A DNA stretch of 64,000 nucleotides from a virus, in the IMG/VR virus record IMGVR_UViG_3300005856_000023, positions 65,011-129,010 of that record; one strand, given 5' to 3'. Below, piece by piece: positions 11 through 44,221 of the stretch; the stretch's first letter is position 1, and each line of letters begins with the position of its first letter. The notes under the pieces were generated by a model that was not told the origin of the DNA, ran no database searches, and was given only the letters and a program-made list of their open reading frames with translations. Both the position numbers and the translations under genes were made by a program.

Positions 11-718
11 ATGGTTAGCTGGCTTATTGGTGTTGGAGACATAGGAGATGAAACAGATTTTGCAAAAATCAGGCAATACGGATTTGTTTATGTTTTTAAA
101 TTGGGTTCAGGTAATAATCCAGTAGCAACAGAAATAAAAAACAATCTAAACGAGGTTTTATTCAAAACATTTCAGAGAATAACATTACCGGAATGGCCGC
201 AACAATTTGCTACACAAGATGTATATACACTTAGAATAGAACAACCAGTTATAACTGGTATTGGTGAGCAATTTACTGTTGAATATTTATCTGTTTTCAA
301 AAAAGTAGGAGCGGATACAGCATACAATTTTGTAGTTAATAGTTTGCTAAAATGGAAGTATTATTTGGATACATCTATTGAGAAAGGTTGGATGCCACAT
401 ACAATAGATCCCAGAGAGCGAACTGCTGTAATAGGATATGTTTTATTATCTCCTGATCTGAGTGAGATATGGGGCGGAGAAATATTCGGTGGATGTAATT
501 TAACTGAAATTGATACAGGACATAGATATACGGCGGGACAAGTAGAGTTAGCTGTAGCAAGAGCTACATTTGAATTCACTGAGAGAATTCCATTATTAAC
601 TGCGATAAGAGGACAATTAAGAGACACTCTATTTAATCCTGATATAGATTATTTAGCAGATATCCAAAGAGTTATTGAGAAAGCAAAGTCTATATTCACA
701 TTTGCAGATCAGGGATAG
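11..718 (+). CDS. Putative virion structural protein (tail-tube-like)
   Basis: 235-aa beta-rich ORF; the ITLP...FTVEY...ATFEF pattern is reminiscent of myovirus tail tube proteins. Followed by a T-tract. Family call is tentative. Confidence 0.4.
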   Translation: MVSWLIGVGDIGDETDFAKIRQYGFVYVFKLGSGNNPVATEIKNNLNEVLFKTFQRITLPEWPQQFATQDVYTLRIEQPVITGIGEQFTVEYLSVFKKVGADTAYNFVVNSLLKWKYYLDTSIEKGWMPHTIDPRERTAVIGYVLLSPDLSEIWGGEIFGGCNLTEIDTGHRYTAGQVELAVARATFEFTERIPLLTAIRGQLRDTLFNPDIDYLADIQRVIEKAKSIFTFADQG

Positions 719-2943: not shown

Positions 2944-4311
2944 TTACGTTGCTATAACATATCCTGCTAGTGAATCATACAATATGTTAACATTTAAACC
3001 TCCATGTGGAACAAATAAATGTTTTGTTACATCAAACTTATCATTTTTGCTATCAAGATAGAATAAGACAACTGTATCACCATCAGCATCTGCATTGTAT
3101 CCTTCCCATACCAGTTGATTCATTTGTATTGCAAATCCATCGTATGCTCCAGCTATTTTGAATTGCATTGTAGAAGGCAAATGTAATACAGGTTGTCTCA
3201 TAAGCAATACATAAACATCTTCTTTGTTTATTATCTCATCAATTATTTTTTTGATTGTTTCATCTACCTTTAAAGTTTGGTAGACATAATCAATTCTTTC
3301 AGTTATATTACTTTGTTTCTGCTCAATTAGTTTGGATATGATTTTGTCCTCTAGCAACATGAAAGCACAAATATAAGGAACAACTACTTCATTTGGTTTG
3401 ATAGCAGGATTTCCAACCAAAACAGCCCTAGTGCTTAAATCAATTCTTCTACCTAGCGTTTTACCTCTAATTGGACCTGTTTTCTTTTTTATGAAGGATG
3501 ATATTATTTTATGCTCTATTTTGTATAGTTTATGTAACATATTACCATATATAAAGTATTTTGTAGATGTTTCATCTATATCAAGTTTCTTGTTTGCAGA
3601 TAAGAGATCAAGATAATCTCTGTTGATCTCATGCAAATTTAAAACGGTTAGATTTTTACCAAATGCAATATTAATATCTCTGACTCCAGCAGGTAATACA
3701 TTAATATATTCCACAAAAGCATTGTCAAAGCTAACATTGTTTCTGATGGCTTGTACTAGTTGTATGTTATCATTCAGTTTATTATAAATGAGCGATGAAA
3801 CTTGTTCATATAAATCCAAATCCTGATCCAAATATAAACCTTTCTCCAAAGCAATTGAACCAAATTTATCAATCATTGTTTGTATGGACGCATTATATAT
3901 CTTAGCAAGTAAATGAAGCCATATACCAAAAGGAGATAAAACCTTCTTCTCAATATACAAACCAAGTGATTTATCCTGTATACCATTATTCTCATCATAA
4001 GCATACATTCCAAATAAACTTTCATACCTATGAAGTATTAACAATATTAATGGATGTGGAACAGGAACATTCAATTTAATTTTACCGATTGTGTATGCTC
4101 TCATGTATGCAGGTTTAGATTCAACATTGCAAACAGGACAAATATATTTTGGTGGGCGAATTATATTGCAAGCACAAGTATAATCATATACTGGACCAAA
4201 TATAGTCTCACTAAATATACCTAATGGATGAAATCTCCACGTTAATCCATAATTTTCTGGCTTAATATTTGATCCCTCAAATATAAGTGGTTCTGTGATA
4301 AATAAACTCAT
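2944..4311 (-). CDS. rpoC: RNA polymerase beta' N-terminal part (set 1) with catalytic loop
   Basis: IFGPxxDYxCxC...CxxC zinc finger, GRRIDLSTRAV, RQPVLH and NADADGD catalytic motif. ORF track starts at 4329; the ATG at 4311 follows the CTAAA motif. Confidence 0.9.
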   Translation of the reverse strand: MSLFITEPLIFEGSNIKPENYGLTWRFHPLGIFSETIFGPVYDYTCACNIIRPPKYICPVCNVESKPAYMRAYTIGKIKLNVPVPHPLILLILHRYESLFGMYAYDENNGIQDKSLGLYIEKKVLSPFGIWLHLLAKIYNASIQTMIDKFGSIALEKGLYLDQDLDLYEQVSSLIYNKLNDNIQLVQAIRNNVSFDNAFVEYINVLPAGVRDINIAFGKNLTVLNLHEINRDYLDLLSANKKLDIDETSTKYFIYGNMLHKLYKIEHKIISSFIKKKTGPIRGKTLGRRIDLSTRAVLVGNPAIKPNEVVVPYICAFMLLEDKIISKLIEQKQSNITERIDYVYQTLKVDETIKKIIDEIINKEDVYVLLMRQPVLHLPSTMQFKIAGAYDGFAIQMNQLVWEGYNADADGDTVVLFYLDSKNDKFDVTKHLFVPHGGLNVNILYDSLAGYVIAT

Positions 4312-4443
4312 AACAAAAAAATTTAGCATACGTGCAAATAACTACTATCTCAGTAGCAGACTATATAATAACAATTTTTGTTTAGTTTTTGATCATAGTT
4401 TTTGTTTATATAAGTATACAAAAAAATTTAGATGATTTGTTCG

Positions 4444-30310: not shown

Positions 30311-30382
30311 AAAACGTTTAATTGCTTATTAAAACATAAAATGAAAATAATTTTTGTTTAGTTTATACAGCATTGTCTAAGT

Positions 30383-31420
30383 ATGAACAATCTTAAACAA
30401 AAACTTGAACTGGAAAAGATTAAAAAGAAGGAAAGAGAAATTAGAAAGATATTTAAACATGCTAATTTGAAAGATTTTAATGTAGACGATTTTAGTAAGA
30501 ACGTAAACAACATTCCTTATCTTCAATATGCTCTCAACTTGGAAATGTATAACGATATGCTTTTTAAAATCAAATATGTAAATAAAGATCTATCAAATCT
30601 TGTATTTACAGTAGATAAGGATTATGAAGTTGAGATTTTAACAATAAACCTTAATGGACAATTAAGATGGTCAAAAATAGTAGAAGTAAGTGTACATCTA
30701 AATTTGGATGGATATAGCATACAACTAAAAGATGAATATGCTAACAATCTAAAAATGAAACAAACTAATTTTAAAGTATCTAGTGATCATTCTTTACTTG
30801 TTTATGATGTTAGCAAACAGAAAATAATCAAAGCTACACCAAAGAAAATTTCTCGCAATCTAGACAACTATTGTTTTATTGGTTATCCAAAGAAACTATT
30901 CAACAATTATATAGAGATAGAGCGGTACGAAGATTTAGCTTTCATACCTTGTTCTTGGTTTGAATTTAAACCAGAACAAAAGTTAACTTTGTATGATATC
31001 TCAGTTGATGACTCTAATTATTGTTACTTTCATATTTCACCGGGCATATTTGTTGTAGATACTGCAATAGTGTATACACTACATACAGAAGAAGCAAAGA
31101 AAGAAGCCTTAGAAAAAATGTCACTCTCAAAAAATTTGATCTCATCAGAAAATATAAATAATTTCACATATGGTATAGATAAAAATGCTCTGTTTGGATT
31201 AATAGTTGGATCACAAACAAGTCAAGATTTGGGTTATAAATATAATCCAAAGGAATTTAAATTCAATGTTAATAGCATACAAGAGCTTAAAGAATTGCTA
31301 ACAACAAAGTTAGCAGGTAAGTACACAATCTTTGATTACGTTTATGTTGATAATAAAAAACTAACTATAGGACAAGCATTCATAGCATTAACAATTAAAG
31401 AACAGCTTGTTAAGAGATAA
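30383..31420 (+). CDS. rpoC: Split-intein C-part fused to an RNA polymerase beta' fragment (set 2)
   Basis: Hint blocks (KVSSDHSLL; LYDISV...GIFVVD), then TAIVYTLHTEEAKKEALEKMSLSKNLIS, which matches the beta' segment following NADFDGD. Confidence 0.75.
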   Translation: MNNLKQKLELEKIKKKEREIRKIFKHANLKDFNVDDFSKNVNNIPYLQYALNLEMYNDMLFKIKYVNKDLSNLVFTVDKDYEVEILTINLNGQLRWSKIVEVSVHLNLDGYSIQLKDEYANNLKMKQTNFKVSSDHSLLVYDVSKQKIIKATPKKISRNLDNYCFIGYPKKLFNNYIEIERYEDLAFIPCSWFEFKPEQKLTLYDISVDDSNYCYFHISPGIFVVDTAIVYTLHTEEAKKEALEKMSLSKNLISSENINNFTYGIDKNALFGLIVGSQTSQDLGYKYNPKEFKFNVNSIQELKELLTTKLAGKYTIFDYVYVDNKKLTIGQAFIALTIKEQLVKR

Positions 31421-34442: not shown

Positions 34443-35369
34443 TTACATTCCACCTTTTTTGAGTGAACTAATTAAATCTTGAGCTGTTTTATGTATTACT
34501 TTTGCGCGAGCACCTGTATGCATAGACTTTAGTAGACCTGTGTATGCAAATTCAGATATCGCATGAGCTGATAATACACCAAGTTGTTTTGAGTTTAGTT
34601 TCTCATATATAAGCCCAGCACAACGTTTACAAATTTTGTTATTAGGTAATGTGCAATATATAGGTGAGTACATTTTGACCTCTTTGCCCACAAATTTATC
34701 TATATTAGTTTCATCCAACAATATATCCACATCCTTTTGCTTTATGAATCTGTATAGGAATCTATGTTTATTTTTGTCTGTTATAGTTACATTTAATAAA
34801 TCTTTTGGTTCACATATTTTATTTACATCAACTTCAACGTTTAAAGCATAAATGGCTTGTCTTAGAAAGTATCCTGGTTTTTGAGTAAACATAACTCTAT
34901 CCAATATACCTTTTCTAGCAGCATTAGCATAATCAAAGAATTCACGTTGATTGATACCTTTTGCTAGAGAGTTTACTACAGGCCTGGGTATAACCTTATT
35001 TCTAACATCTACAAAGTATCCTCTGCTTATGGCTAGTTGTTTGATGTTGTTTCTTGCAGCGCCAATCTTCATAGCATACACACTTGGATTATTAAACGTA
35101 GCATATTTATCAAAATACTGTTTGCTATATTCCTCTAATTTTTTATCATAGGTATCCGGATCAACTTTATCACTTAAATCCTTTACTTCCATTATAACAT
35201 AATCCTTATAACTAGTTGTCATACCTAGCATTGTTGCTAGCTCAAATCCGATTTTTTGTAATGCAGCAATTAATTTAGCAGTTGTTTCTGGTCCATATTC
35301 ATTAAATACTTGTCTTAAAAATGTATTTAGATCTTTTTTTGATTTAAAAGTGATTTTGTTAATATCCAT
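34443..35369 (-). CDS. rpoC: RNA polymerase beta' middle fragment (set 2): bridge helix and trigger loop
   Basis: ARKGILD...PGYFLRQ, SPIYC...ICKRCAG and AISEFAYTGLLKSMHTG. Confidence 0.88.
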   Translation of the reverse strand: MDINKITFKSKKDLNTFLRQVFNEYGPETTAKLIAALQKIGFELATMLGMTTSYKDYVIMEVKDLSDKVDPDTYDKKLEEYSKQYFDKYATFNNPSVYAMKIGAARNNIKQLAISRGYFVDVRNKVIPRPVVNSLAKGINQREFFDYANAARKGILDRVMFTQKPGYFLRQAIYALNVEVDVNKICEPKDLLNVTITDKNKHRFLYRFIKQKDVDILLDETNIDKFVGKEVKMYSPIYCTLPNNKICKRCAGLIYEKLNSKQLGVLSAHAISEFAYTGLLKSMHTGARAKVIHKTAQDLISSLKKGGM

Positions 35370-35380
35370 AATTACTCAGC

Positions 35381-36262
35381 TCAAGATAACTTCAAGAGTT
35401 GTTTTTGTTCTAGTAACTGAGCAAAATCTTTATCAAAATCGGTTGCATAGAAGCCAACAAATATCGGAACTCTAGGAATACCGGCTTCTGTATAATGCAT
35501 ACTCTTTATGTTTAGCTTTTTGCCAATAAACTTTTGTTTATGTTCTGCCACAAATCTTCTTTGTTCCTCTGTCAAACCAGAACCGACATTAAATCTATGA
35601 CCCTTGTACTCACAAACAAAAGCTTTTGCTCTACTGTTTTGAATGATAACGTCCACAACTTTAACATCTATATCTACAAATAGTTTAGCTTTGATCCAGT
35701 TAGATGTTCTGCTTGGAACATAAAAGTGTCCAGCTTTCTTAAACATAGCTCCTTCAAAACCTCTATTGTAATATTGTTTAGCAATTTCCATAAAATATTT
35801 TCTACTATTTTTTGTAGCTCGTATATGTGGGACATATTTAAATCTCTTATCCTTAGTTGAGATATATTTTAATAACTTTTGTAGTTCTTGTTTACGTTCT
35901 TCATATGGAACTTCATAAACTTTGCCTTTTAGTATTGTATCTTGATCAACTATATCAAAAACATAGATTTTTATATTGTTTTGTATATGCTTTGATTTTG
36001 TTTCTGATCTAATTGACATAGTTTGCCAAACATTATTTGCAAAACTTTCACAATCTAAAACATATCCTCTTGGTATCTGTTTGATTATATCTTTGTCAAC
36101 ATCAATATATAGAGTGTTTCCATATCTGCTTATAATATTACCGTCACTAAAAATGAGAGTTCTCAATCCATCTATCTTATATTCGTAAAACCAATTGTTA
36201 TGTTCAATTGTTTTGTCTGACACATCCTGCAACAATTTACCTAATGCTATATGTACTTGCAT
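35381..36262 (-). CDS. ATP-dependent DNA ligase
   Basis: EYKIDGLR (motif I), LDCE, YVFDI, EGAMFK, WIKAK and VGSG (OB domain). Confidence 0.92.
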   Translation of the reverse strand: MQVHIALGKLLQDVSDKTIEHNNWFYEYKIDGLRTLIFSDGNIISRYGNTLYIDVDKDIIKQIPRGYVLDCESFANNVWQTMSIRSETKSKHIQNNIKIYVFDIVDQDTILKGKVYEVPYEERKQELQKLLKYISTKDKRFKYVPHIRATKNSRKYFMEIAKQYYNRGFEGAMFKKAGHFYVPSRTSNWIKAKLFVDIDVKVVDVIIQNSRAKAFVCEYKGHRFNVGSGLTEEQRRFVAEHKQKFIGKKLNIKSMHYTEAGIPRVPIFVGFYATDFDKDFAQLLEQKQLLKLS

Positions 36263-36284: not shown

Positions 36285-39158
36285 ATGTTAGAGTTGGGTA
36301 TAGTATTGGGATTTGATTTTGATCAACAAGAGGGTAAAACTTTTAAAATTAAAGATTATGATTATCCTACATTTGAACAAGGTTTATACAAAGTGTTATT
36401 ACTTAGAGAACCGAAAAGAACTATTAAAGCATTTCCCATATCTACTTCTGTTTATGTGTATGGAAGAAATTTAGCTTATAGCTATCCTTACATAGCTATA
36501 GGTTCTCTTGTCTTGGTTTATATGTGGCCAGAATCAGATCTAGGTATTATAATAGGTTCTCCACAAATTATAAAAGAAGGAGAATTGCTAAGAAATATGA
36601 CAACTTTATACAAATCTATTTTGGGTAATAACATTGTTGTTACAGAACCAAGTTATTTTCACAATCAATACACTAGTGGTTTAGTTGTTGGACATCCTGA
36701 TGCTTTGTGTAATATTGGAACATTGTTTGGAGCAAAAACGAATGAATTTATTGATATCAATGTTAGTTTTGATGATTTGATTAAAAACAATATTCATTTA
36801 CTTACAGGTTTATCCAAACATTTAAATGTAGATGAAAAAGCATTGTTTGCACAAACAAGACTAAATGCTGAAATAAATAATGAACAGCCTTTTCAATTCA
36901 AAGTTCCTAACATATCTTTTCCAATAGGTTCGTCATTCTTATTACACAGAAGCAGACCCTTGTTGTTAGATTTGTTAAATCAAGATGATAAAAATTACAA
37001 TCAAATCTCTAGTGGAAGAGAATCATATATGGATCACATACTTGTACATAGCAAAGTGCATACATATAATCTGAACAATCTAATCATAAATCAGTACAAT
37101 AATACTGGCTTGTTTAATGCTAGAATTGTAGAATATAAGACTGAAGATAGTAGGATAGTTAATGTAGGTGGATCAAAAGTGGATGAATCAATTGCTTACA
37201 GCAAAAAATTCTACTACCAACCACTTGTTAGTATCAATAATGACACTATTGTGATTAGAGAAAAAGTAGAAACCTTACCCTTTGAAAAACCTTATCTACA
37301 TAGAAGAGTTAGCAAAACATTTAATTTTGAAAAAAGATTATTTGTGAAGCAGGAAAATTTTGCAAATTATTATCAATTTACAACTAGACTTGATGCAACG
37401 GAAAGGTCAATAGTTCATTCTATAATAACACAACAAACAGCAGATACCCAGTCTATAGTAGGTCTACAAGTTGAAACTAAAAATATTAGTAACAATAATA
37501 TCATACGTTCAACAATTGAGATACAAAACAATAGAATATTGCTTGTAGTTGAACAAGGTGCAGATCAATCAATAATTGAAATGACTCCTACAAAAATTAC
37601 AATACATGCAAAGCAAATAGAGATATTAGGTGAAAACATATCGATACTAAGTAGTAATCCTATCAAAGGTTATATACTTAGATCTGTGTATGCAGATCAA
37701 CGCGCACCAGGTCCATCTGTTTCTTATCATCCATATAATGTTAAGGTTTCATCTTACATACAAAATGGTAATAATACTCAAAACATACTTTCACCAACAT
37801 ACAGTAATTCAGGTACAAATTCTAAACTAAGAATTATAACGGAAACAAAATTAAAAACTATGCTACTTAACACTACAGATCAAACTATTAGAGAATTAAG
37901 TAATTTGTTTGAGTCAATAAAAAGAGAAGTTAAAAGATTAAAACCTAATAATGTAGACAACTTACTTTCGAAAATATGTAATTTATTTTCCATTTTGTCT
38001 ATGATACCAGCTGCTATAACACAACTATTGATCAATTTAGCTTCGGCTGCTTTACCTTTGTTAATAAGCCAACTATCAAGTATAGTTAATACAATCTTAA
38101 GAGTTATTGATAATGTAATAAGTTCAATTACAAATATTATTCAACGAAGTCCTATATTTCATTTACTAAAACAAATATCTAATGTTTTAGCTTCCTTTCT
38201 AGCTGCAATTTTACAATCTATAAATGCTTTACTTAATGATATTAGTTCATTACTGAGTAACATTGGCTTTAGCATTAATAATATACTAGATGTTACTCTA
38301 CCATTATTAGCACTGGCAGAATGTATTGTAAGTTACATAAGGACAATTCGTAACGAAAATCCTGCTCTTTCTATTGATCCGATAGATGATATAATTAACG
38401 ATAGCAATCCAAATAAATTAACAGACTACAAAGTCAAAATAAAAGGAAAACGTCTAGAATTAGATTCACAAACATATACCATAAATGGTTCTCATGCAAA
38501 CATAGATAGAGAACAAATGATGAGTTTAATAAACAATGAAACTGTTAATAGTTTGAATTTATATGATGGCTTAATAACTTTGCTTGAAGGTGGTATGTTG
38601 CAAATAATCAATGGTAGTTATCTAAATCTGAATGAATATAATATAACTTCTGGTATCATCAAATTTGGTTCTGGTAGAATTGGCAATATAGCAATTAATC
38701 ATGGTCATGCTAATGTCAAGTCGGGTAATATAGTTATTGATAACAATAATAGGGAAATTATAATCAATCTTTTGTTACAAGGACAGTTTGTTACCGGCGG
38801 TAGCACTGGTACTACCAGCAGTAGCAATGTTATTGAATTCACAATGGAAATACAAACAACTACAAATACAAGTGATGTTCTAACAGATTTTGTAAATCCA
38901 GATCTCTTAACTTTTAATGAAAAAGCGCTACAAGAACTATCTAGAATGATTGAGAATATTGCTCCATCTGATAAATTCGACAAAAACATAAATATACAAC
39001 CAGATGAATTAAATAATGTCTTAAAAGATATACAAAAAACTATTAATGAGTCATATAATCAAACCATAAATAAATTCAACAAAAACATAAATATACTAAC
39101 AAATGAATTAAATAATGTCTTAAAAGATATACAAAAAACTATTTCTCAAATATGTTAA
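36285..39158 (+). CDS. Putative baseplate hub/spike-associated large protein
   Basis: OB-like N-terminus (P.IGSLVLV) and beta-repeat IEMTPTKITIHAKQIEI. Start moved from 36195 to AGCT-N9-ATG. Confidence 0.5.
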   Translation: MLELGIVLGFDFDQQEGKTFKIKDYDYPTFEQGLYKVLLLREPKRTIKAFPISTSVYVYGRNLAYSYPYIAIGSLVLVYMWPESDLGIIIGSPQIIKEGELLRNMTTLYKSILGNNIVVTEPSYFHNQYTSGLVVGHPDALCNIGTLFGAKTNEFIDINVSFDDLIKNNIHLLTGLSKHLNVDEKALFAQTRLNAEINNEQPFQFKVPNISFPIGSSFLLHRSRPLLLDLLNQDDKNYNQISSGRESYMDHILVHSKVHTYNLNNLIINQYNNTGLFNARIVEYKTEDSRIVNVGGSKVDESIAYSKKFYYQPLVSINNDTIVIREKVETLPFEKPYLHRRVSKTFNFEKRLFVKQENFANYYQFTTRLDATERSIVHSIITQQTADTQSIVGLQVETKNISNNNIIRSTIEIQNNRILLVVEQGADQSIIEMTPTKITIHAKQIEILGENISILSSNPIKGYILRSVYADQRAPGPSVSYHPYNVKVSSYIQNGNNTQNILSPTYSNSGTNSKLRIITETKLKTMLLNTTDQTIRELSNLFESIKREVKRLKPNNVDNLLSKICNLFSILSMIPAAITQLLINLASAALPLLISQLSSIVNTILRVIDNVISSITNIIQRSPIFHLLKQISNVLASFLAAILQSINALLNDISSLLSNIGFSINNILDVTLPLLALAECIVSYIRTIRNENPALSIDPIDDIINDSNPNKLTDYKVKIKGKRLELDSQTYTINGSHANIDREQMMSLINNETVNSLNLYDGLITLLEGGMLQIINGSYLNLNEYNITSGIIKFGSGRIGNIAINHGHANVKSGNIVIDNNNREIIINLLLQGQFVTGGSTGTTSSSNVIEFTMEIQTTTNTSDVLTDFVNPDLLTFNEKALQELSRMIENIAPSDKFDKNINIQPDELNNVLKDIQKTINESYNQTINKFNKNINILTNELNNVLKDIQKTISQIC

Positions 39159-41899
39159 CTTTTTTGCGATTTTATATGAAAGCTATAAAGTAGTTGTTGT
39201 AACAATTGATTTGATTTTATTTTTAACTCTGCTGGCAATGTAGCTTTACCTTGCTGTATTATGTTTGGTATAACACTATCAAGAAAATCAGAAGATTCAG
39301 CATTCAACATGAACAATTCTTTCATCACTGCTGGAGCATCATGAGCTAATATTGCCCAACTATCAAACTCTCCAATTCTATGTCCACCGGATATCTTTTT
39401 ACCTTTCATTGCTTGACCAGTTAGAGCTCTCTTTGGAGCATCTGCTACAGCATGTAATACTTCATCTGTTGTATGCTCCAACCTAAACCAATACATGTAG
39501 CCAATGCTAACAGGATAGGTAGTGTAGGTTTTAAACTCAGGTAGATATAATTTTTGACTTGTGCTTATACTAAAATGTTTCTCTAGCCTTTGTATAGCAG
39601 CTTGTGTATCATCTCCATGTGATGATGGACTTGCAAATGGTGGTATAATAACAGGAATGGCCTGTATCTGTTTTGCTCTGTTGTATATCCTATTGAAATC
39701 ATAGTCGCTTAATGCATGCAATGATTTCATCAGTTTATCCAAAATATTGGAGTTAAAGTATAATACTTCATAGAATTTTATAAAAGTCTCTTTAAAGGTT
39801 TTGAGATCCTTAACAAACTTTTGATAAACATGTTTTGCTATGTAAGATACAGCAAGTTCATATAACTGTCCAATGTTAGCTCTGTTGACTACTCCTAATG
39901 GATCGCATATAACATGTACTGTTTCACCATATTCTGTTTTGGGCATTAATTCATCTGGTATGATTGCAGCAATAACTCCTTTGTTTCCATGTCTATTACA
40001 TAACTTATCTCCTAATCTAGCATGATTATATTTTGATAGCACAAAACTCAGTATAGCAATTGGTTTCTTATCGTTGTATCTAAAACCTTTTAGTTTTGAT
40101 ATATCTTCCGGTATTAAATATCTTGATTCAAAGTCACTATAGTATTTTGTATAATTTTGAACATAGGCTTTGTATTTGGTTATAAACTTATCATATATTG
40201 GTTTAAGTTCCTTTACCCTATCATCATTTATATCAACATTTAGGTAAATAGCAAAATCCAATATATCATTACCTTTGAATCTGTAGTTAATAACTCTACC
40301 TGCTACTTCTTTGAGTATTGATATTTCAGAATCTGATACAAATTCGCTATCAGATTGTTCTATTAGATGTTCGTCTTCTTCTTCCTCTACATCTTGCTTT
40401 TCATTTATTAACATTTCAACTCTGAACATTATCTCACCATCTTTAAATCTCTCACCTTTAAGCAATTTTGGATTTACTGCTACAATCTTTTGATCTTTCC
40501 AAATTGGTATATTAACTATAAAAGTCTTTTTTGTTACACTTAGTTGCTTAGCAAATGATTCAGATACCACAATACCATCTTCATATGTATAACCTTTGTA
40601 GTGCATAAATGCCGTAAGCACATTCTTTCCTAAAGATAATGTTTCTTGTTTAACATAATCTGATTCAACTAAAATTTGATCTTTTTTGAAGACATCGTTA
40701 GTTTTTATATGCATATTAACATAATATTTACCTTTACCTGTGTTTAGTATTCTTGCTCCAGTATCATAAAATACTTCCCTTCCGTCTTTATATTGAACAA
40801 CTATATATCCGTCTTCTTTCTCTATAATTTTACCATCATCTTCTGCTCGTATGGTAAATAGTCCAGATGTAAGCCTTGGTATTATTGATTCTATACCTGT
40901 TGCAACAATAGGTATTTCGCTATTCTCCAATGGAACAATTGATCTAAGTTGGTTTGTTGCTAGCAAGACTCTATTACCATCATTATGCTCGATGAAAGGT
41001 ATCATGCTCTCAAGTGGAGACAATATACTATAATGTCCTTCCAAAGCAGGTAACTCTATTCTTTTTATTTTACCTGATAAATCTGATATGTATGCTCCGA
41101 GTGTTAATCTGTTTGTCTTAGATGTGTTAGCATTCTCTGGAGTATCGTAAGCAGCTATCTTACCATAAACCGATTCATCTAAGTAACCTATGTCTGCTAC
41201 TGATGCTTCCTGTTTAATTCCATCTGGTCCTGTTAGTTTCAAAGTGAAAACTAACGATAGTTCCTCTAGTGGAGATGATGTTTCAGCTATTTGTAGCAGC
41301 TCGGGTAGACGGTATCCGAATGCTGTACTATCTGACAATTTTTGAACTATAGTTGATGGATTAAAAAATCTTGATAGTTTAGCGTCTGGTTTATCTTGTA
41401 TTTTTTGGTATAGTTTTAAGGACTTAACAAACTCTTTGTAGAAGACCTGTATTAGTAATTCTGCCCAACGTAATCTTGTATTATCTGATAGTCGTGGTTT
41501 AGATGCTTGACCAGACGCAGCTAAATACAAAGCATAAGCTACAACATCTTCTGCTTTTGTATCAATGTTATATAATCTTCTTATTAAATCCATCGTTATA
41601 CTGTCTGTTTCAAAATCTAAAGCAACTAACAATACACCTTTGTATTTATTAGCATCATGTTCTGATTTTAATAGTTTTATAGTTTCAAAAGCTGCATCAA
41701 CTAGTTTGAATTTATCCTTTTCTATACTATGTGAATCAAGTTGTTCAACAAATTTTTGAAATTCATCTGATTCAAGTAAACCTTGTATTATATCTGGATC
41801 GTATACGAACTCACTTTGTCTCTTGAAGACAAGTTTTTTACCATCAGCTAGAGGAAAACTTATAATGTTTTTTGATGTTATATTTCTCTTGCTAGACAT
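39155..41899 (-). CDS. rpoB: RNA polymerase beta C-terminal part
   Basis: HNDGNRVLLATNQ, GYTYEDGIVVSESFA, GDKLCNRHGNKGVI, PLGVVNRANIGQ and GGHRIGEFD. Confidence 0.95.
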   Translation of the reverse strand: MSSKRNITSKNIISFPLADGKKLVFKRQSEFVYDPDIIQGLLESDEFQKFVEQLDSHSIEKDKFKLVDAAFETIKLLKSEHDANKYKGVLLVALDFETDSITMDLIRRLYNIDTKAEDVVAYALYLAASGQASKPRLSDNTRLRWAELLIQVFYKEFVKSLKLYQKIQDKPDAKLSRFFNPSTIVQKLSDSTAFGYRLPELLQIAETSSPLEELSLVFTLKLTGPDGIKQEASVADIGYLDESVYGKIAAYDTPENANTSKTNRLTLGAYISDLSGKIKRIELPALEGHYSILSPLESMIPFIEHNDGNRVLLATNQLRSIVPLENSEIPIVATGIESIIPRLTSGLFTIRAEDDGKIIEKEDGYIVVQYKDGREVFYDTGARILNTGKGKYYVNMHIKTNDVFKKDQILVESDYVKQETLSLGKNVLTAFMHYKGYTYEDGIVVSESFAKQLSVTKKTFIVNIPIWKDQKIVAVNPKLLKGERFKDGEIMFRVEMLINEKQDVEEEEDEHLIEQSDSEFVSDSEISILKEVAGRVINYRFKGNDILDFAIYLNVDINDDRVKELKPIYDKFITKYKAYVQNYTKYYSDFESRYLIPEDISKLKGFRYNDKKPIAILSFVLSKYNHARLGDKLCNRHGNKGVIAAIIPDELMPKTEYGETVHVICDPLGVVNRANIGQLYELAVSYIAKHVYQKFVKDLKTFKETFIKFYEVLYFNSNILDKLMKSLHALSDYDFNRIYNRAKQIQAIPVIIPPFASPSSHGDDTQAAIQRLEKHFSISTSQKLYLPEFKTYTTYPVSIGYMYWFRLEHTTDEVLHAVADAPKRALTGQAMKGKKISGGHRIGEFDSWAILAHDAPAVMKELFMLNAESSDFLDSVIPNIIQQGKATLPAELKIKSNQLLQQLLYSFHIKSQKS

Positions 41900-42583: not shown

Positions 42584-44221
42584 TTACTCTTCTGCTAATT
42601 GTTTAATACGAGATTCTACATTAATATTTTTTGTCTCATATGTAAATGATTGAGATGCTCTTTCAAACAATAATCCTAGACCTAATCTATGTGGCATAAT
42701 TTTAATTGATTCTTTTGTCATTGGAAAATCAAACTTTCTATCAAAGAAGTAAATGTTATTGTCTTTTGTTAATAGTTGAGCCATAACCAATAGCTCAATC
42801 ATAGATAGTGGAATTCTTTCTTTGTATGAGAGCATACTAAACAATACCTCTATTAACTTATAGAGATGCTTTTCATCTTCAATTACAAACTTGCTGTTTA
42901 ATATCTTCTTTAATAGTTTGATAGAGTTTACAATTGAATGATAGTTTATTGTAAACAGAGGTCCTTGATAGTTATCCACGTTCTTATCTATGAAGAGTAG
43001 ATAACCTGGTTGTAAATCAATCTCTATACTTTTATCGTTACATTTTATTATCATTTTTGTTTCATGTAATAATATATGTTTTACAGTTAAGATTTTTGTG
43101 TCAAACCTTATGTCAGCTGGCTTATCAAGTATAATGATATTTCTGTCCATTCTCAATAAATCAGGATAGGATGTTAGTAAGTTAGTAAATGTGTTTGCTA
43201 TGTTAACAGCAGAACCTGTATGAAACACTCTTAATGTTAGTTGTACTCCTCTCTCTCCTAAAGTTTGAGCAGTGATTATTCCTATCTCATCGTAATCTCT
43301 ATAATACCAATCTCCAAAACATCTTCTACAAATACCGTTATCTGTTTTGCAATGTAAAACTGATCTAAAGGGAATACTATGTCCGATTAAATGTTTATCC
43401 TCTTTTGTCAACATTTTTTCTTTGTTAGTTCTAATGTCATAATAATACCTACCAACAAGATTGTAAAAGTTTGATTCAGTTACTTTGTAGACGATATATT
43501 GATTGCTATGACAATCTTCCTCTTTGAATCTGATATGCGATAAGTTGTAAATGAATTGTCTTGTTAGATAGCCGGGTTCAAATGTTGAAACTGCTTTATC
43601 ATAGGTTGCTTTTCTAGCTCCTTCTCCAGATCTAACCAAAGATTGTAGAGATAATCCATCTAGATAGTTATCTTCAATAAATATTAGTTTTCCAGGTGCT
43701 GTCTCTATATAACCCCTGGCTAGTAACATTTGTCTTAATTGTATATCTGATGCTCTAACTCCGCTATCAACAATATTGACAAGCAAATTATTTCTTTCCT
43801 TTAAGGATGTTTTGAATTCATTGTAATACTTTTCGAGTAACAAATTTTTATTTATGATGTTCGTAGTATTTTTAATCTCCTTTATGTATTGCTTACGTAT
43901 CTCATTTAAATCTAATAAATCATCTAGTGTTATGGAAAAAGATGCAAAAGTAGATAAACAGTGTCCTAATTTATACATGTAATCTATGCATTCCAAAGTT
44001 TTATCTGGATTGTTACTATTTAACTCTATTAAATTGGATATAAATTCTGACATAGTTTTTTTGTTAAATTTTGCAGGGATATTATTTTCGTCTAGTTCTA
44101 ATCCAAAGTCTTTTATAACGTTTATTAGAAATTGTTTTAAATCAAAATCGTATTGTTCCAATTTTTGCATACATTCATTACAAAATTTTTTCATTTGCTT
44201 TAGGTAATCAACCGGTTGCAT
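42584..44221 (-). CDS. rpoC: RNA polymerase beta' C-terminal part (set 1)
   Basis: GARKATYDKAVSTFEPGYLTR, RSVLHC...ICRRCFG and AQTLGERGVQLTLRVFHTG. Confidence 0.92.
   Translation of the reverse strand: MQPVDYLKQMKKFCNECMQKLEQYDFDLKQFLINVIKDFGLELDENNIPAKFNKKTMSEFISNLIELNSNNPDKTLECIDYMYKLGHCLSTFASFSITLDDLLDLNEIRKQYIKEIKNTTNIINKNLLLEKYYNEFKTSLKERNNLLVNIVDSGVRASDIQLRQMLLARGYIETAPGKLIFIEDNYLDGLSLQSLVRSGEGARKATYDKAVSTFEPGYLTRQFIYNLSHIRFKEEDCHSNQYIVYKVTESNFYNLVGRYYYDIRTNKEKMLTKEDKHLIGHSIPFRSVLHCKTDNGICRRCFGDWYYRDYDEIGIITAQTLGERGVQLTLRVFHTGSAVNIANTFTNLLTSYPDLLRMDRNIIILDKPADIRFDTKILTVKHILLHETKMIIKCNDKSIEIDLQPGYLLFIDKNVDNYQGPLFTINYHSIVNSIKLLKKILNSKFVIEDEKHLYKLIEVLFSMLSYKERIPLSMIELLVMAQLLTKDNNIYFFDRKFDFPMTKESIKIMPHRLGLGLLFERASQSFTYETKNINVESRIKQLAEE

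Follow-up and report, generated by a model that had tools for sequence, protein, structure and literature searches.

The window analysed here is a stretch of 64,000 nucleotides (guanine plus cytosine about 30%) that forms the second half of a linear virus record of 129,010 bp (IMG/VR record IMGVR_UViG_3300005856_000023; the window is G000:C1:65011-129010). The completeness of this record, G000, was estimated by CheckV at about 50%. Pfam and PHROG scans, together with tblastn, located pieces of two multisubunit RNA polymerases in the window. The present analysis concerns the open reading frame (ORF) at 30383–31420 on the plus strand (C1:95393-96430 of the record), which takes as its start the first ATG following a stop codon and encodes a protein of 345 residues, P0002. 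Its first 226 residues are intein, and the following 119 belong to the RNA polymerase beta' subunit, picking up directly after the catalytic DFDGD loop. P0002 thus carries the C-terminal part of an intein (IntC), and the corresponding N-terminal part (IntN) was found in a second, distant gene. The features of P0002 are as follows.

30383–30553, plus strand: N-terminal extension of IntC (residues 1–57), mostly helical and basic at its start; contiguous relatives have no counterpart
30554–31060, plus strand: Hint-fold core of IntC (residues 58–226), recognised by fold match and by blocks B, F and G; ends in Asp226
30779–30790, plus strand: block B, S133-S-D-H136 (Thr/Ser-x-x-His motif) within KVSSDHSLL; invariant in five of five close homologues
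30989–31006, plus strand: block F, LYDISV, with Asp205 at position F:4; Asp205 is invariant in close homologues
31043–31060, plus strand: block G, GIFVVD, with terminal Asp226 and Val rather than His as the penultimate residue; placed by sequence, homologues and superposition via a contiguous relative
31061–31417, plus strand: C-extein, beta' residues T227–R345 (119 aa), with Thr227 as the +1 nucleophile; placed by intein-less homologues

A first-pass annotation, made from the sequence alone, had read this frame as an Asp-terminated, atypically split intein at the polymerase active site. The strings that it quoted were all found in P0002 where it had put them; EILTINLNGQLRWSKIVEVSVH occupies residues 84–105, and T227-AIVYTLHTEEAKKEALEKMSLSKNLIS follows directly on Asp226 (nucleotide 31060). 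It was also right that block A and an N-extein are absent, as P0002 has neither a DxDGD motif nor a first-residue nucleophile. Five homologous protein clusters were obtained for P0002, four of them full-length with identities of 97–39%. In these four, S133, D135, H136, Y204, D205, G221, V224, V225, D226 and T227 are invariant, along with I-x-Y-x-x-H-x-EEAKKEA after T227. Since four homologues at such identities retain all these residues, the motif set in P0002 is more than a chance occurrence. The C-extein is only 119 residues long, as beta' is split once more downstream. Block G of P0002 ends in Val-Asp, not in the His-Asn that is the consensus for class 1 inteins. According to PMC4031507, an intein may have Asp, Gln or Glu as its last residue, or lack the penultimate His (as about 5% do), and still be accepted as capable of splicing. 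Given these accepted variants, the Val-Asp terminus is a departure from the consensus that does not exclude membership among the inteins.

When the whole record was searched with Pfam Rpb1 domain 2, only two genes were found: P0001, an intein-less paralogue in the window, and P0008. The latter encodes a 431-residue N-terminal part of beta' (beta'-N) at G000:C1:16788-18083 on the minus strand; it lies outside the window, 78 kb from P0002 and on the opposite strand. The beta' homology of P0008 stops at GGDFDGD (Asp387), and Ser388 and 43 further residues follow before the stop codon. This tail (Ser388–Glu431, 44 aa) resembles intein block A and has no block B. The first-pass annotation had predicted a partner outside the window ending in DxDGD with a short IntN of 10–30 residues. 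Such a partner exists, with DFDGD followed by Ser, though its tail of 44 residues is longer than predicted. Four more homologues of P0008, down to 24% identity, share this ending; their tails span 31–52 residues, and Ser388 is invariant in all five proteins. The complementary intein parts sit in two genes that have separate start and stop codons. The cut falls between blocks A and B and leaves an IntN of 44 residues and an IntC of 226 residues with blocks B, F and G. P0002 and the tail of P0008 are, in short, the two parts of an atypically split intein with a short IntN, encoded in two dispersed genes. With only two Rpb1 domain-2 matches, no intact beta' of the same polymerase set was found elsewhere in the 129-kb record, itself about 50% complete; the first-pass annotation had reckoned with such a copy as evidence to the contrary. 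With 78 kb between the halves and opposite strands encoding them, joining at the RNA level, as by an intron, was ruled out. The scan of neighbouring genes revealed no endonuclease family, and the arrangement of both halves in one locus around an endonuclease gene is absent here.

Fold of the intein part and predicted binding of the halves

Because Pfam and PDB sequence profiles detect no Hint domain in P0002, structural evidence was needed to back up the motifs. P0002 was modelled with AlphaFold2 from a shallow alignment, and the model was compared structurally with 48,161 PDB representatives. The top 29 rows were all inteins or Hint domains, with Z scores from 10.4 to 5.4, and the next row was an unrelated protein (Z 4.3). 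The best match was 9hth_B, the Aes123 PolB1 split intein (Z 10.4, root-mean-square deviation 3.1, 138 residues aligned, covering 58..227 of the model). Solved inteins align with P0002 only from about their residue 20–30 onward, which indicates that P0002 contains a Hint domain without its first strands. The Hint fold that had been proposed for the intein part was therefore obtained for residues ~58–226, which in the top 29 rows match inteins and Hint domains only.

A similar comparison was made for a contiguous relative from locus L005, of which a 231-residue stretch was folded with a 28-row alignment. This model had a predicted local distance difference test score (pLDDT) of 81.5 and a predicted template modelling score of 0.78. 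Inteins and Hint domains filled its 33 top PDB rows, from Z 18.8 down to 5.2, before a drop to 2.5 in the next row, and 9hth was again the best match (Z 18.8, 170 residues aligned, 19% identity). Superposed on several of these matches (e.g. 5o9i, 2lqm and 1dq3), the L005 intein begins level with residue 1 of the solved intein, at the residue following DFDGD, and ends level with its last residue, at the Asp that precedes TMAV. Homology assigns position 1 of the split intein to Ser388 (P0008), its last position to Asp226 (P0002) and the +1 position to Thr227. The possibility that GIFVVD is a degenerate DFDGD of an inactive beta' barrel was also considered; it was ruled out by the fold, the partner gene and the superposition of the boundaries.

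The first-pass annotation had called for modelling of the pair. We predicted the complex of P0002 residues 1–250 with P0008 residues 372–431, each with its own alignment, in three runs and with three controls. The interface score ipSAE was 0.82, 0.83 and 0.82 in the three runs, compared to 0.00 for the best control. The pLDDT of the partner did not fall below 65, and the runs had 64% or more of their contacts in common. In the calibration, 58 of 80 solved complexes reached the pass mark, as did 2 of 110 mismatched pairs. In the model, residues 387–401 of P0008 pair with the P0002 strand 80–86 and also touch block B (130–136), block F (201–206) and residue 224 near the terminal Asp. The prediction supports binding of the halves to each other; as solved split-intein complexes exist in the PDB, the score may partly reflect resemblance to these.

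The N-terminal extension of IntC may take part in this contact. In the P0002 model, which is of low confidence, it forms helices at 2–26, 34–39 and 45–56, and the first 30 residues of the protein carry a net charge of +7. The BLASTP alignment of P0002 with the contiguous relative L005 begins only at residue 79. In the complex model, the end of the P0008 tail (410–424) contacts P0002 residues 44–61; within it, residues 416–424 pack on P0002 residues 58–61 and the extension helix 44–55. The last 15 residues of IntN are acidic (−1 to −3 in five of five proteins) and are opposed by a basic start of IntC (+4 to +7 in four of five; 0 in P0007). Such charge complementarity is suggestive only.

The same insertion site in relatives

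Four intein-less homologues of the partner gene product (P0012, P0014, P0018 and P0019; 26–28% identity to P0008) are tailless, with the sequence DFDGD-[A/T]-x-x-V...EAQ-EAK. Their sequence after DFDGD is the one at which P0002 resumes with Thr227. All four, as well as the paralogue P0001, run straight through DxDGD, bearing out an in-frame insertion at a conserved site. Where intein-less beta' relatives are themselves split, the split lies ~45–50 residues beyond DFDGD, and in none does it fall inside the DFDGD-xMAV strand.

A pattern scan of IMG/VR gave five loci that bear the element at the same site, L004–L008. At L005, the intein is contiguous within a protein of 927 residues, which reads ...ADFDGD, then Thr...SSDHSLIVYD...GLFIQD, then TMAVYHP.... 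By BLASTP, residues 343–423 of P0008 match residues 51–132 of this protein, and residues 79–273 of P0002 match its residues 153–342. The intein-less P0012 matches residues 29–97 and 293–346, skipping exactly the insert at 98–292. L007 and L008 have a different layout, consisting of a beta'-N that ends after block B, a free-standing endonuclease-like ORF, and a short IntC fused to the C-terminal part of beta' (beta'-C). The free-standing ORFs (L007:6227-7339, 370 aa; L008:4897-5967, 356 aa) resemble each other, and that of L008 has an HNH-like, Cys/His-rich C-terminus. Presumably these are homing endonucleases that fractured the gene. The beta'-C of L007 (L007:7357-10719, plus strand) was seen to carry a second intein further downstream, with a canonical ..VHN end followed by Ser, and this beta' subunit thus holds two different inteins.

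At L004 and L006, the cut lies before block B, as in P0002. In G002, the record of L006, beta'-N ends in NADYDGD followed by Ser and a 24-residue IntN tail; its two halves lie ~76 kb apart (C1 ~37.5 kb and ~113.6–116.1 kb), with IntC fused to the whole beta'-C. Since G002 keeps its halves so far apart, the dispersed layout is not peculiar to the phage of the window. The same intein thus occurs at the same site in three states among relatives: contiguous, cut by a homing endonuclease, and atypically split.

The extent of the family was surveyed with a profile of the P0002 alignment, which was scored against 1.84 billion representative proteins. There were 104 matches at E ≤ 0.001, and 29 at E ≤ 1e-10; tblastn of P0002 against 50,697 phage records had given no match. 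The profile matches were aligned to the profile with P0002, P0005 and P0007 (106 sequences). The terminal residue of the intein was Asp in 75 of the 75 sequences that could be read there (31 have no residue at this position). The statement that a terminal Asp is rare holds for inteins generally; within the P0002 family, Asp is the rule. The +1 residue of the 75 was Thr in 68, Ser in five, Cys in one and Gly in one. The block B His was present in 69 of 71 and the block F Asp in 72 of 72. The penultimate residue was Gln (26), Tyr (19), Trp (13), Val (7) or another (9, Met and Phe included), and never His. In the profile-aligned proteins and four tail-bearing beta'-N proteins, 48 DxDGD motifs were read; Ser follows in 35, Thr in nine and Cys in four, one of the 48 being the DFDGDT of an intein-less protein.

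By a crude automatic sorting, 39 proteins had blocks B, F and G but no N-junction, corresponding to the atypically split form. Other members were contiguous, often with a large insert. These classes are rough counts, as hmmalign cannot bridge endonuclease insertions and some proteins scored without an N-junction may be truncated calls. Among the members are P0063, P0079 and other proteins of 2,000–3,550 residues which are fused beta-beta' subunits (matched by PHROG families over the whole length) with the same intein after DxDGD.

Proposed reaction, its alternatives and known systems

The first-pass annotation had suggested that the catalytic barrel is assembled by protein trans-splicing, or by Hint-mediated association, with a separate gene ending in DxDGD. 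The fold, the partner, the junction and the predicted binding all support this interpretation. We consider it likely that P0002 and P0008 form a split intein of the class 1 type that joins the beta' catalytic loop by trans-splicing. After translation, the 44-residue tail of P0008 would slot in as the first strands that the Hint barrel of IntC is missing. Ser388 would then attack the Asp387–Ser388 bond (N–O shift), and the N-extein would pass to Thr227 by transesterification. Cyclisation of Asp226 would release the intein, and an O–N shift would follow. The product would be a continuous beta'-N of 506 residues (387 + 119 aa), reading ...GGDFDGD-TAIVYTLHTEEAKKEA..., with an intact DFDGD-T-A-I-V strand. 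In this way, splicing would restore the Mg-binding loop of the double-psi barrel.

Several points weigh against trans-splicing. In the few cases studied, Asp cyclised less readily than Asn; P0002 also lacks a penultimate His. The residue at −1 is Asp387, and Asp at this position favours premature N-terminal cleavage over splicing in many inteins (PMC11842431). Pfam and PHROG scans of P0002 returned no Hint or intein family, the sole Pfam row being a sub-threshold coiled-coil-like match, and a PDB sequence-profile search with the P0002 alignment (E ≤ 10) gave three unrelated chance rows and no intein; homology to inteins is drawn from fold, motifs and relatives. The model of P0002 alone had a mean pLDDT of 56. 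P0004, a homologue with 87% identity to P0002 (258 aa), has a frameshift inside block G by which the intein end and the C-extein are lost, reflecting either a sequencing error or a decaying copy. With the record only half complete, an intact beta' copy may lie elsewhere in the genome. The ligated product is a prediction from sequence and model.

One alternative is that the halves associate through the Hint fold without splicing, the intein serving as a permanent non-covalent clamp on the catalytic barrel. Binding is indeed what the complex model supports, and the terminal Asp, the lost penultimate His and the Asp at −1 each tell against canonical splicing. However, a Hint domain of ~270 residues would then remain at the Mg-binding loop inside the active-site cleft, and the contiguous members of the family could not form a functional loop without excision. 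Moreover, residues that serve the chemistry only are kept across deep divergence (position 1 in 48/48, the +1 nucleophile in 74/75, the block B His in 69/71, the block F Asp in 72/72, the terminal Asp in 75/75). We therefore regard association without splicing as unlikely.

It is still less probable that the intein cleaves without ligating, with N-cleavage promoted by the Asp at −1, cyclisation of Asp226, or both, freeing the exteins to assemble non-covalently as split subunits. Premature N-terminal cleavage is what Asp at −1 favours in many inteins (PMC11842431), and these phages already tolerate beta' in several genes. Against this, the strictly conserved +1 nucleophile (74/75) serves ligation, not cleavage, and the resulting break inside the DFDGD-xMAV strand is seen in no intein-less relative, their splits lying ~45–50 residues later. 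That an old intein invasion left this element as a decaying remnant, with a continuous beta' in the unsequenced half of the genome, would fit the completeness of about 50% and the frameshift in P0004, but is hardly credible: both halves are intact and conserved (39–97% identity for IntC, 24–98% for the IntN-bearing beta'-N) with matching start and stop positions, they share an upstream motif with other genes of their set, and a second phage, G002, keeps the two-gene layout.

Under trans-splicing, the invariant terminal Asp and the lost penultimate His could, rather than drift, be adaptations to a place directly beside the Mg-binding Asp triad, next to the Asp at −1, with the last splicing step gated by metal or by beta'-beta assembly. 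This is a long shot. If it holds, the polymerase would be catalytically competent only once assembled; if the enzyme is also of the virion type (see the next section), it would have a built-in post-translational activation for an enzyme that must be packaged.

Amitai, Dassa and Pietrokovski reportedly described inteins with C-terminal Asp or Gln in 2004. The known Asp- or Gln-terminated inteins (PMC4031507) share with the P0002 family a cyclisable end other than Asn and a tolerance of the lost penultimate His; they are sporadic, whereas in the P0002 family Asp is invariant (75/75) and a penultimate His never occurs. The PolB16 OarG intein (Pasch et al. 2023, PMC10189870; structure 8cpo, among the fold matches) is, like the P0002/P0008 pair, split near its N-terminus with a long IntC bearing blocks B, F and G. 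It too has Ser1 and a hydroxyl +1 nucleophile (Ser), its catalytic residues are cysteine-free, and it comes from a polymerase gene in phage-like metagenomic DNA. It differs in its sizes (IntN of 15 and IntC of 168 residues, compared with 44 and 226 here) and in its host protein, a PolB DNA polymerase. It also appears to end in Asn, the solved variant being N183A, and PMC10189870, in its account of this intein, describes no N-terminal helical extension of IntC. The cysteine-less split intein of Aes123 PolB1 (9hth) is likewise from a phage and is the best structural match of both models; it differs in its host protein and appears to end in Asn, as the solved variant is named N159A.

Fractured genes were described by Dassa et al. 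in 2009 (PMC2677866), and the relatives L007 and L008 have exactly that layout at the beta' site. The fractured-gene model predicts that the endonuclease is later lost and the halves are dispersed (PMC2677866), which is the state seen in P0002/P0008. In the layout of Dassa et al., an endonuclease separates the halves and the cut follows block B; in P0002/P0008 there is no intervening endonuclease, the cut precedes block B, and the genes are on opposite strands with 78 kb between them. The term 'RNA polymerase' occurs 0 times in the main text of PMC2677866. Inteins are also present in the archaeal largest-subunit homologues rPol A'/A'' (Goodwin et al. 2006, PMC1635734), and 14 COG0086 inteins are recorded in Euryarchaeota (PMC4760082); the rPol A'/A'' inteins, unlike the present one, are contiguous and cellular. 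Yutin et al. 2021 (PMC7886860) left certain phage RNA polymerase genes, broken at their DxDxD motif, to 'unknown expression mechanisms'; the P0002 intein family may explain these breaks.

Split, atypically split, fractured, archaeal RNA polymerase and Asp-terminated inteins are thus each known already. What is apparently undescribed is a large, Asp-terminated intein family at the catalytic loop of phage RNA polymerases, with a dispersed, atypically split form. A full-text literature search, which extended neither to supplements nor to subscription journals, found no paper on an intein at the beta' DFDGD site or on the P0002 family, and an earlier description is possible. If splicing takes place, the Mg-binding loop of a phage polymerase is completed only post-translationally from two distant genes. 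Gene callers and Pfam miss the Hint part, so such polymerases appear broken or incomplete. The family displays the contiguous, endonuclease-fractured and dispersed atypically split stages side by side at one insertion site. Natural atypically split inteins with cysteine-free catalytic residues are few and are sought for protein ligation (PMC10189870). The family supplies many such candidates, with a non-canonical Asp end of hardly studied chemistry.

The two polymerase sets and their upstream motifs

The other polymerase genes of the window, and the motif upstream of P0002, are as follows.

2944–4329 (or 2944–4311 from the second ATG), minus strand: beta'-N of the other polymerase set, the intein-less paralogue P0001; Pfam Rpb1 domain 2, E 1.8e-17
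30369–30371, plus strand: AGC, 11 nt before the ATG of P0002, a putative leaderless promoter-class motif; read directly, and present also before the partner gene
34443–35369, minus strand: beta'-C piece of 308 aa; Pfam Rpb1 domains 3 and 5 and PHROG RNA polymerase families
39155–41899, minus strand: beta subunit of 914 aa; Pfam Rpb2 domain 6, E 2e-37
42584–44221, minus strand: second beta'-C-type gene, 545 aa; tblastn with beta'-C proteins of relatives

The paralogue that the first-pass annotation had set against P0002 is present and reads a continuous NADADGD-TVVLFYL with no insert; it is the minus strand that encodes it. The beta'-C piece at 34443–35369 is probably the next subunit of the intein-bearing set, to which the beta subunit at 39155–41899 also probably belongs, and the gene at 42584–44221 is probably a member of the other set. 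Rpb1 domain 1 (PF04997) had no match anywhere in the 129-kb record. Among named phages, AR9/PBS1-like and other jumbo phages come nearest in their polymerase genes (22–26% identity). For P0008, the best match in AR9 was g145 (22% identity, E 5e-6), which carries the annotation virion RNA polymerase beta'-N, and on this sequence match the intein-bearing enzyme may tentatively be taken as a virion-type polymerase. When P0001 was compared by tblastn with the phage records, eight weak records were obtained and AR9 was not among them. For want of an AR9 match, the label 'non-virion' for the P0001 set has its different upstream motif as sole basis.

An AGC 9–11 nt before the ATG was seen for P0002, P0008, the beta'-C at 35369 (N9; 35379–35381) and the beta subunit at 41899 (N10). 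Of 131 ORFs in the whole record, 34 have AGC-N9-11-ATG at their start, compared with 3.2% of random positions, and 31 have CTAAAHTT-N5-8-ATG. The paralogue P0001 has CTAAATTT (4319–4326) 7 nt before the second ATG at 4311, and the two polymerase sets thus fall into different upstream motif classes. Motifs of both classes directly precede start codons, with no Shine-Dalgarno sequence. The AGC motif is a putative promoter, and both intein-half genes are tentatively placed among the late genes. The first-pass annotation had also raised splicing as a possible switch for polymerase activation. A regulatory switch of this kind was not supported, as both halves share the AGC-N9-11-ATG motif with the beta and beta'-C genes of the same set; membership in one motif class favours co-expression and speaks against a timing role of splicing.

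Outside the window, the gene immediately upstream of P0008 encodes a 518-residue fragment of a family-B DNA polymerase (G000:C1:18117-19673, minus strand). It begins just before motif A (..DVNSLYPN..) and has a DTDS motif. The DNA polymerase of this phage seems likewise to be encoded in pieces.

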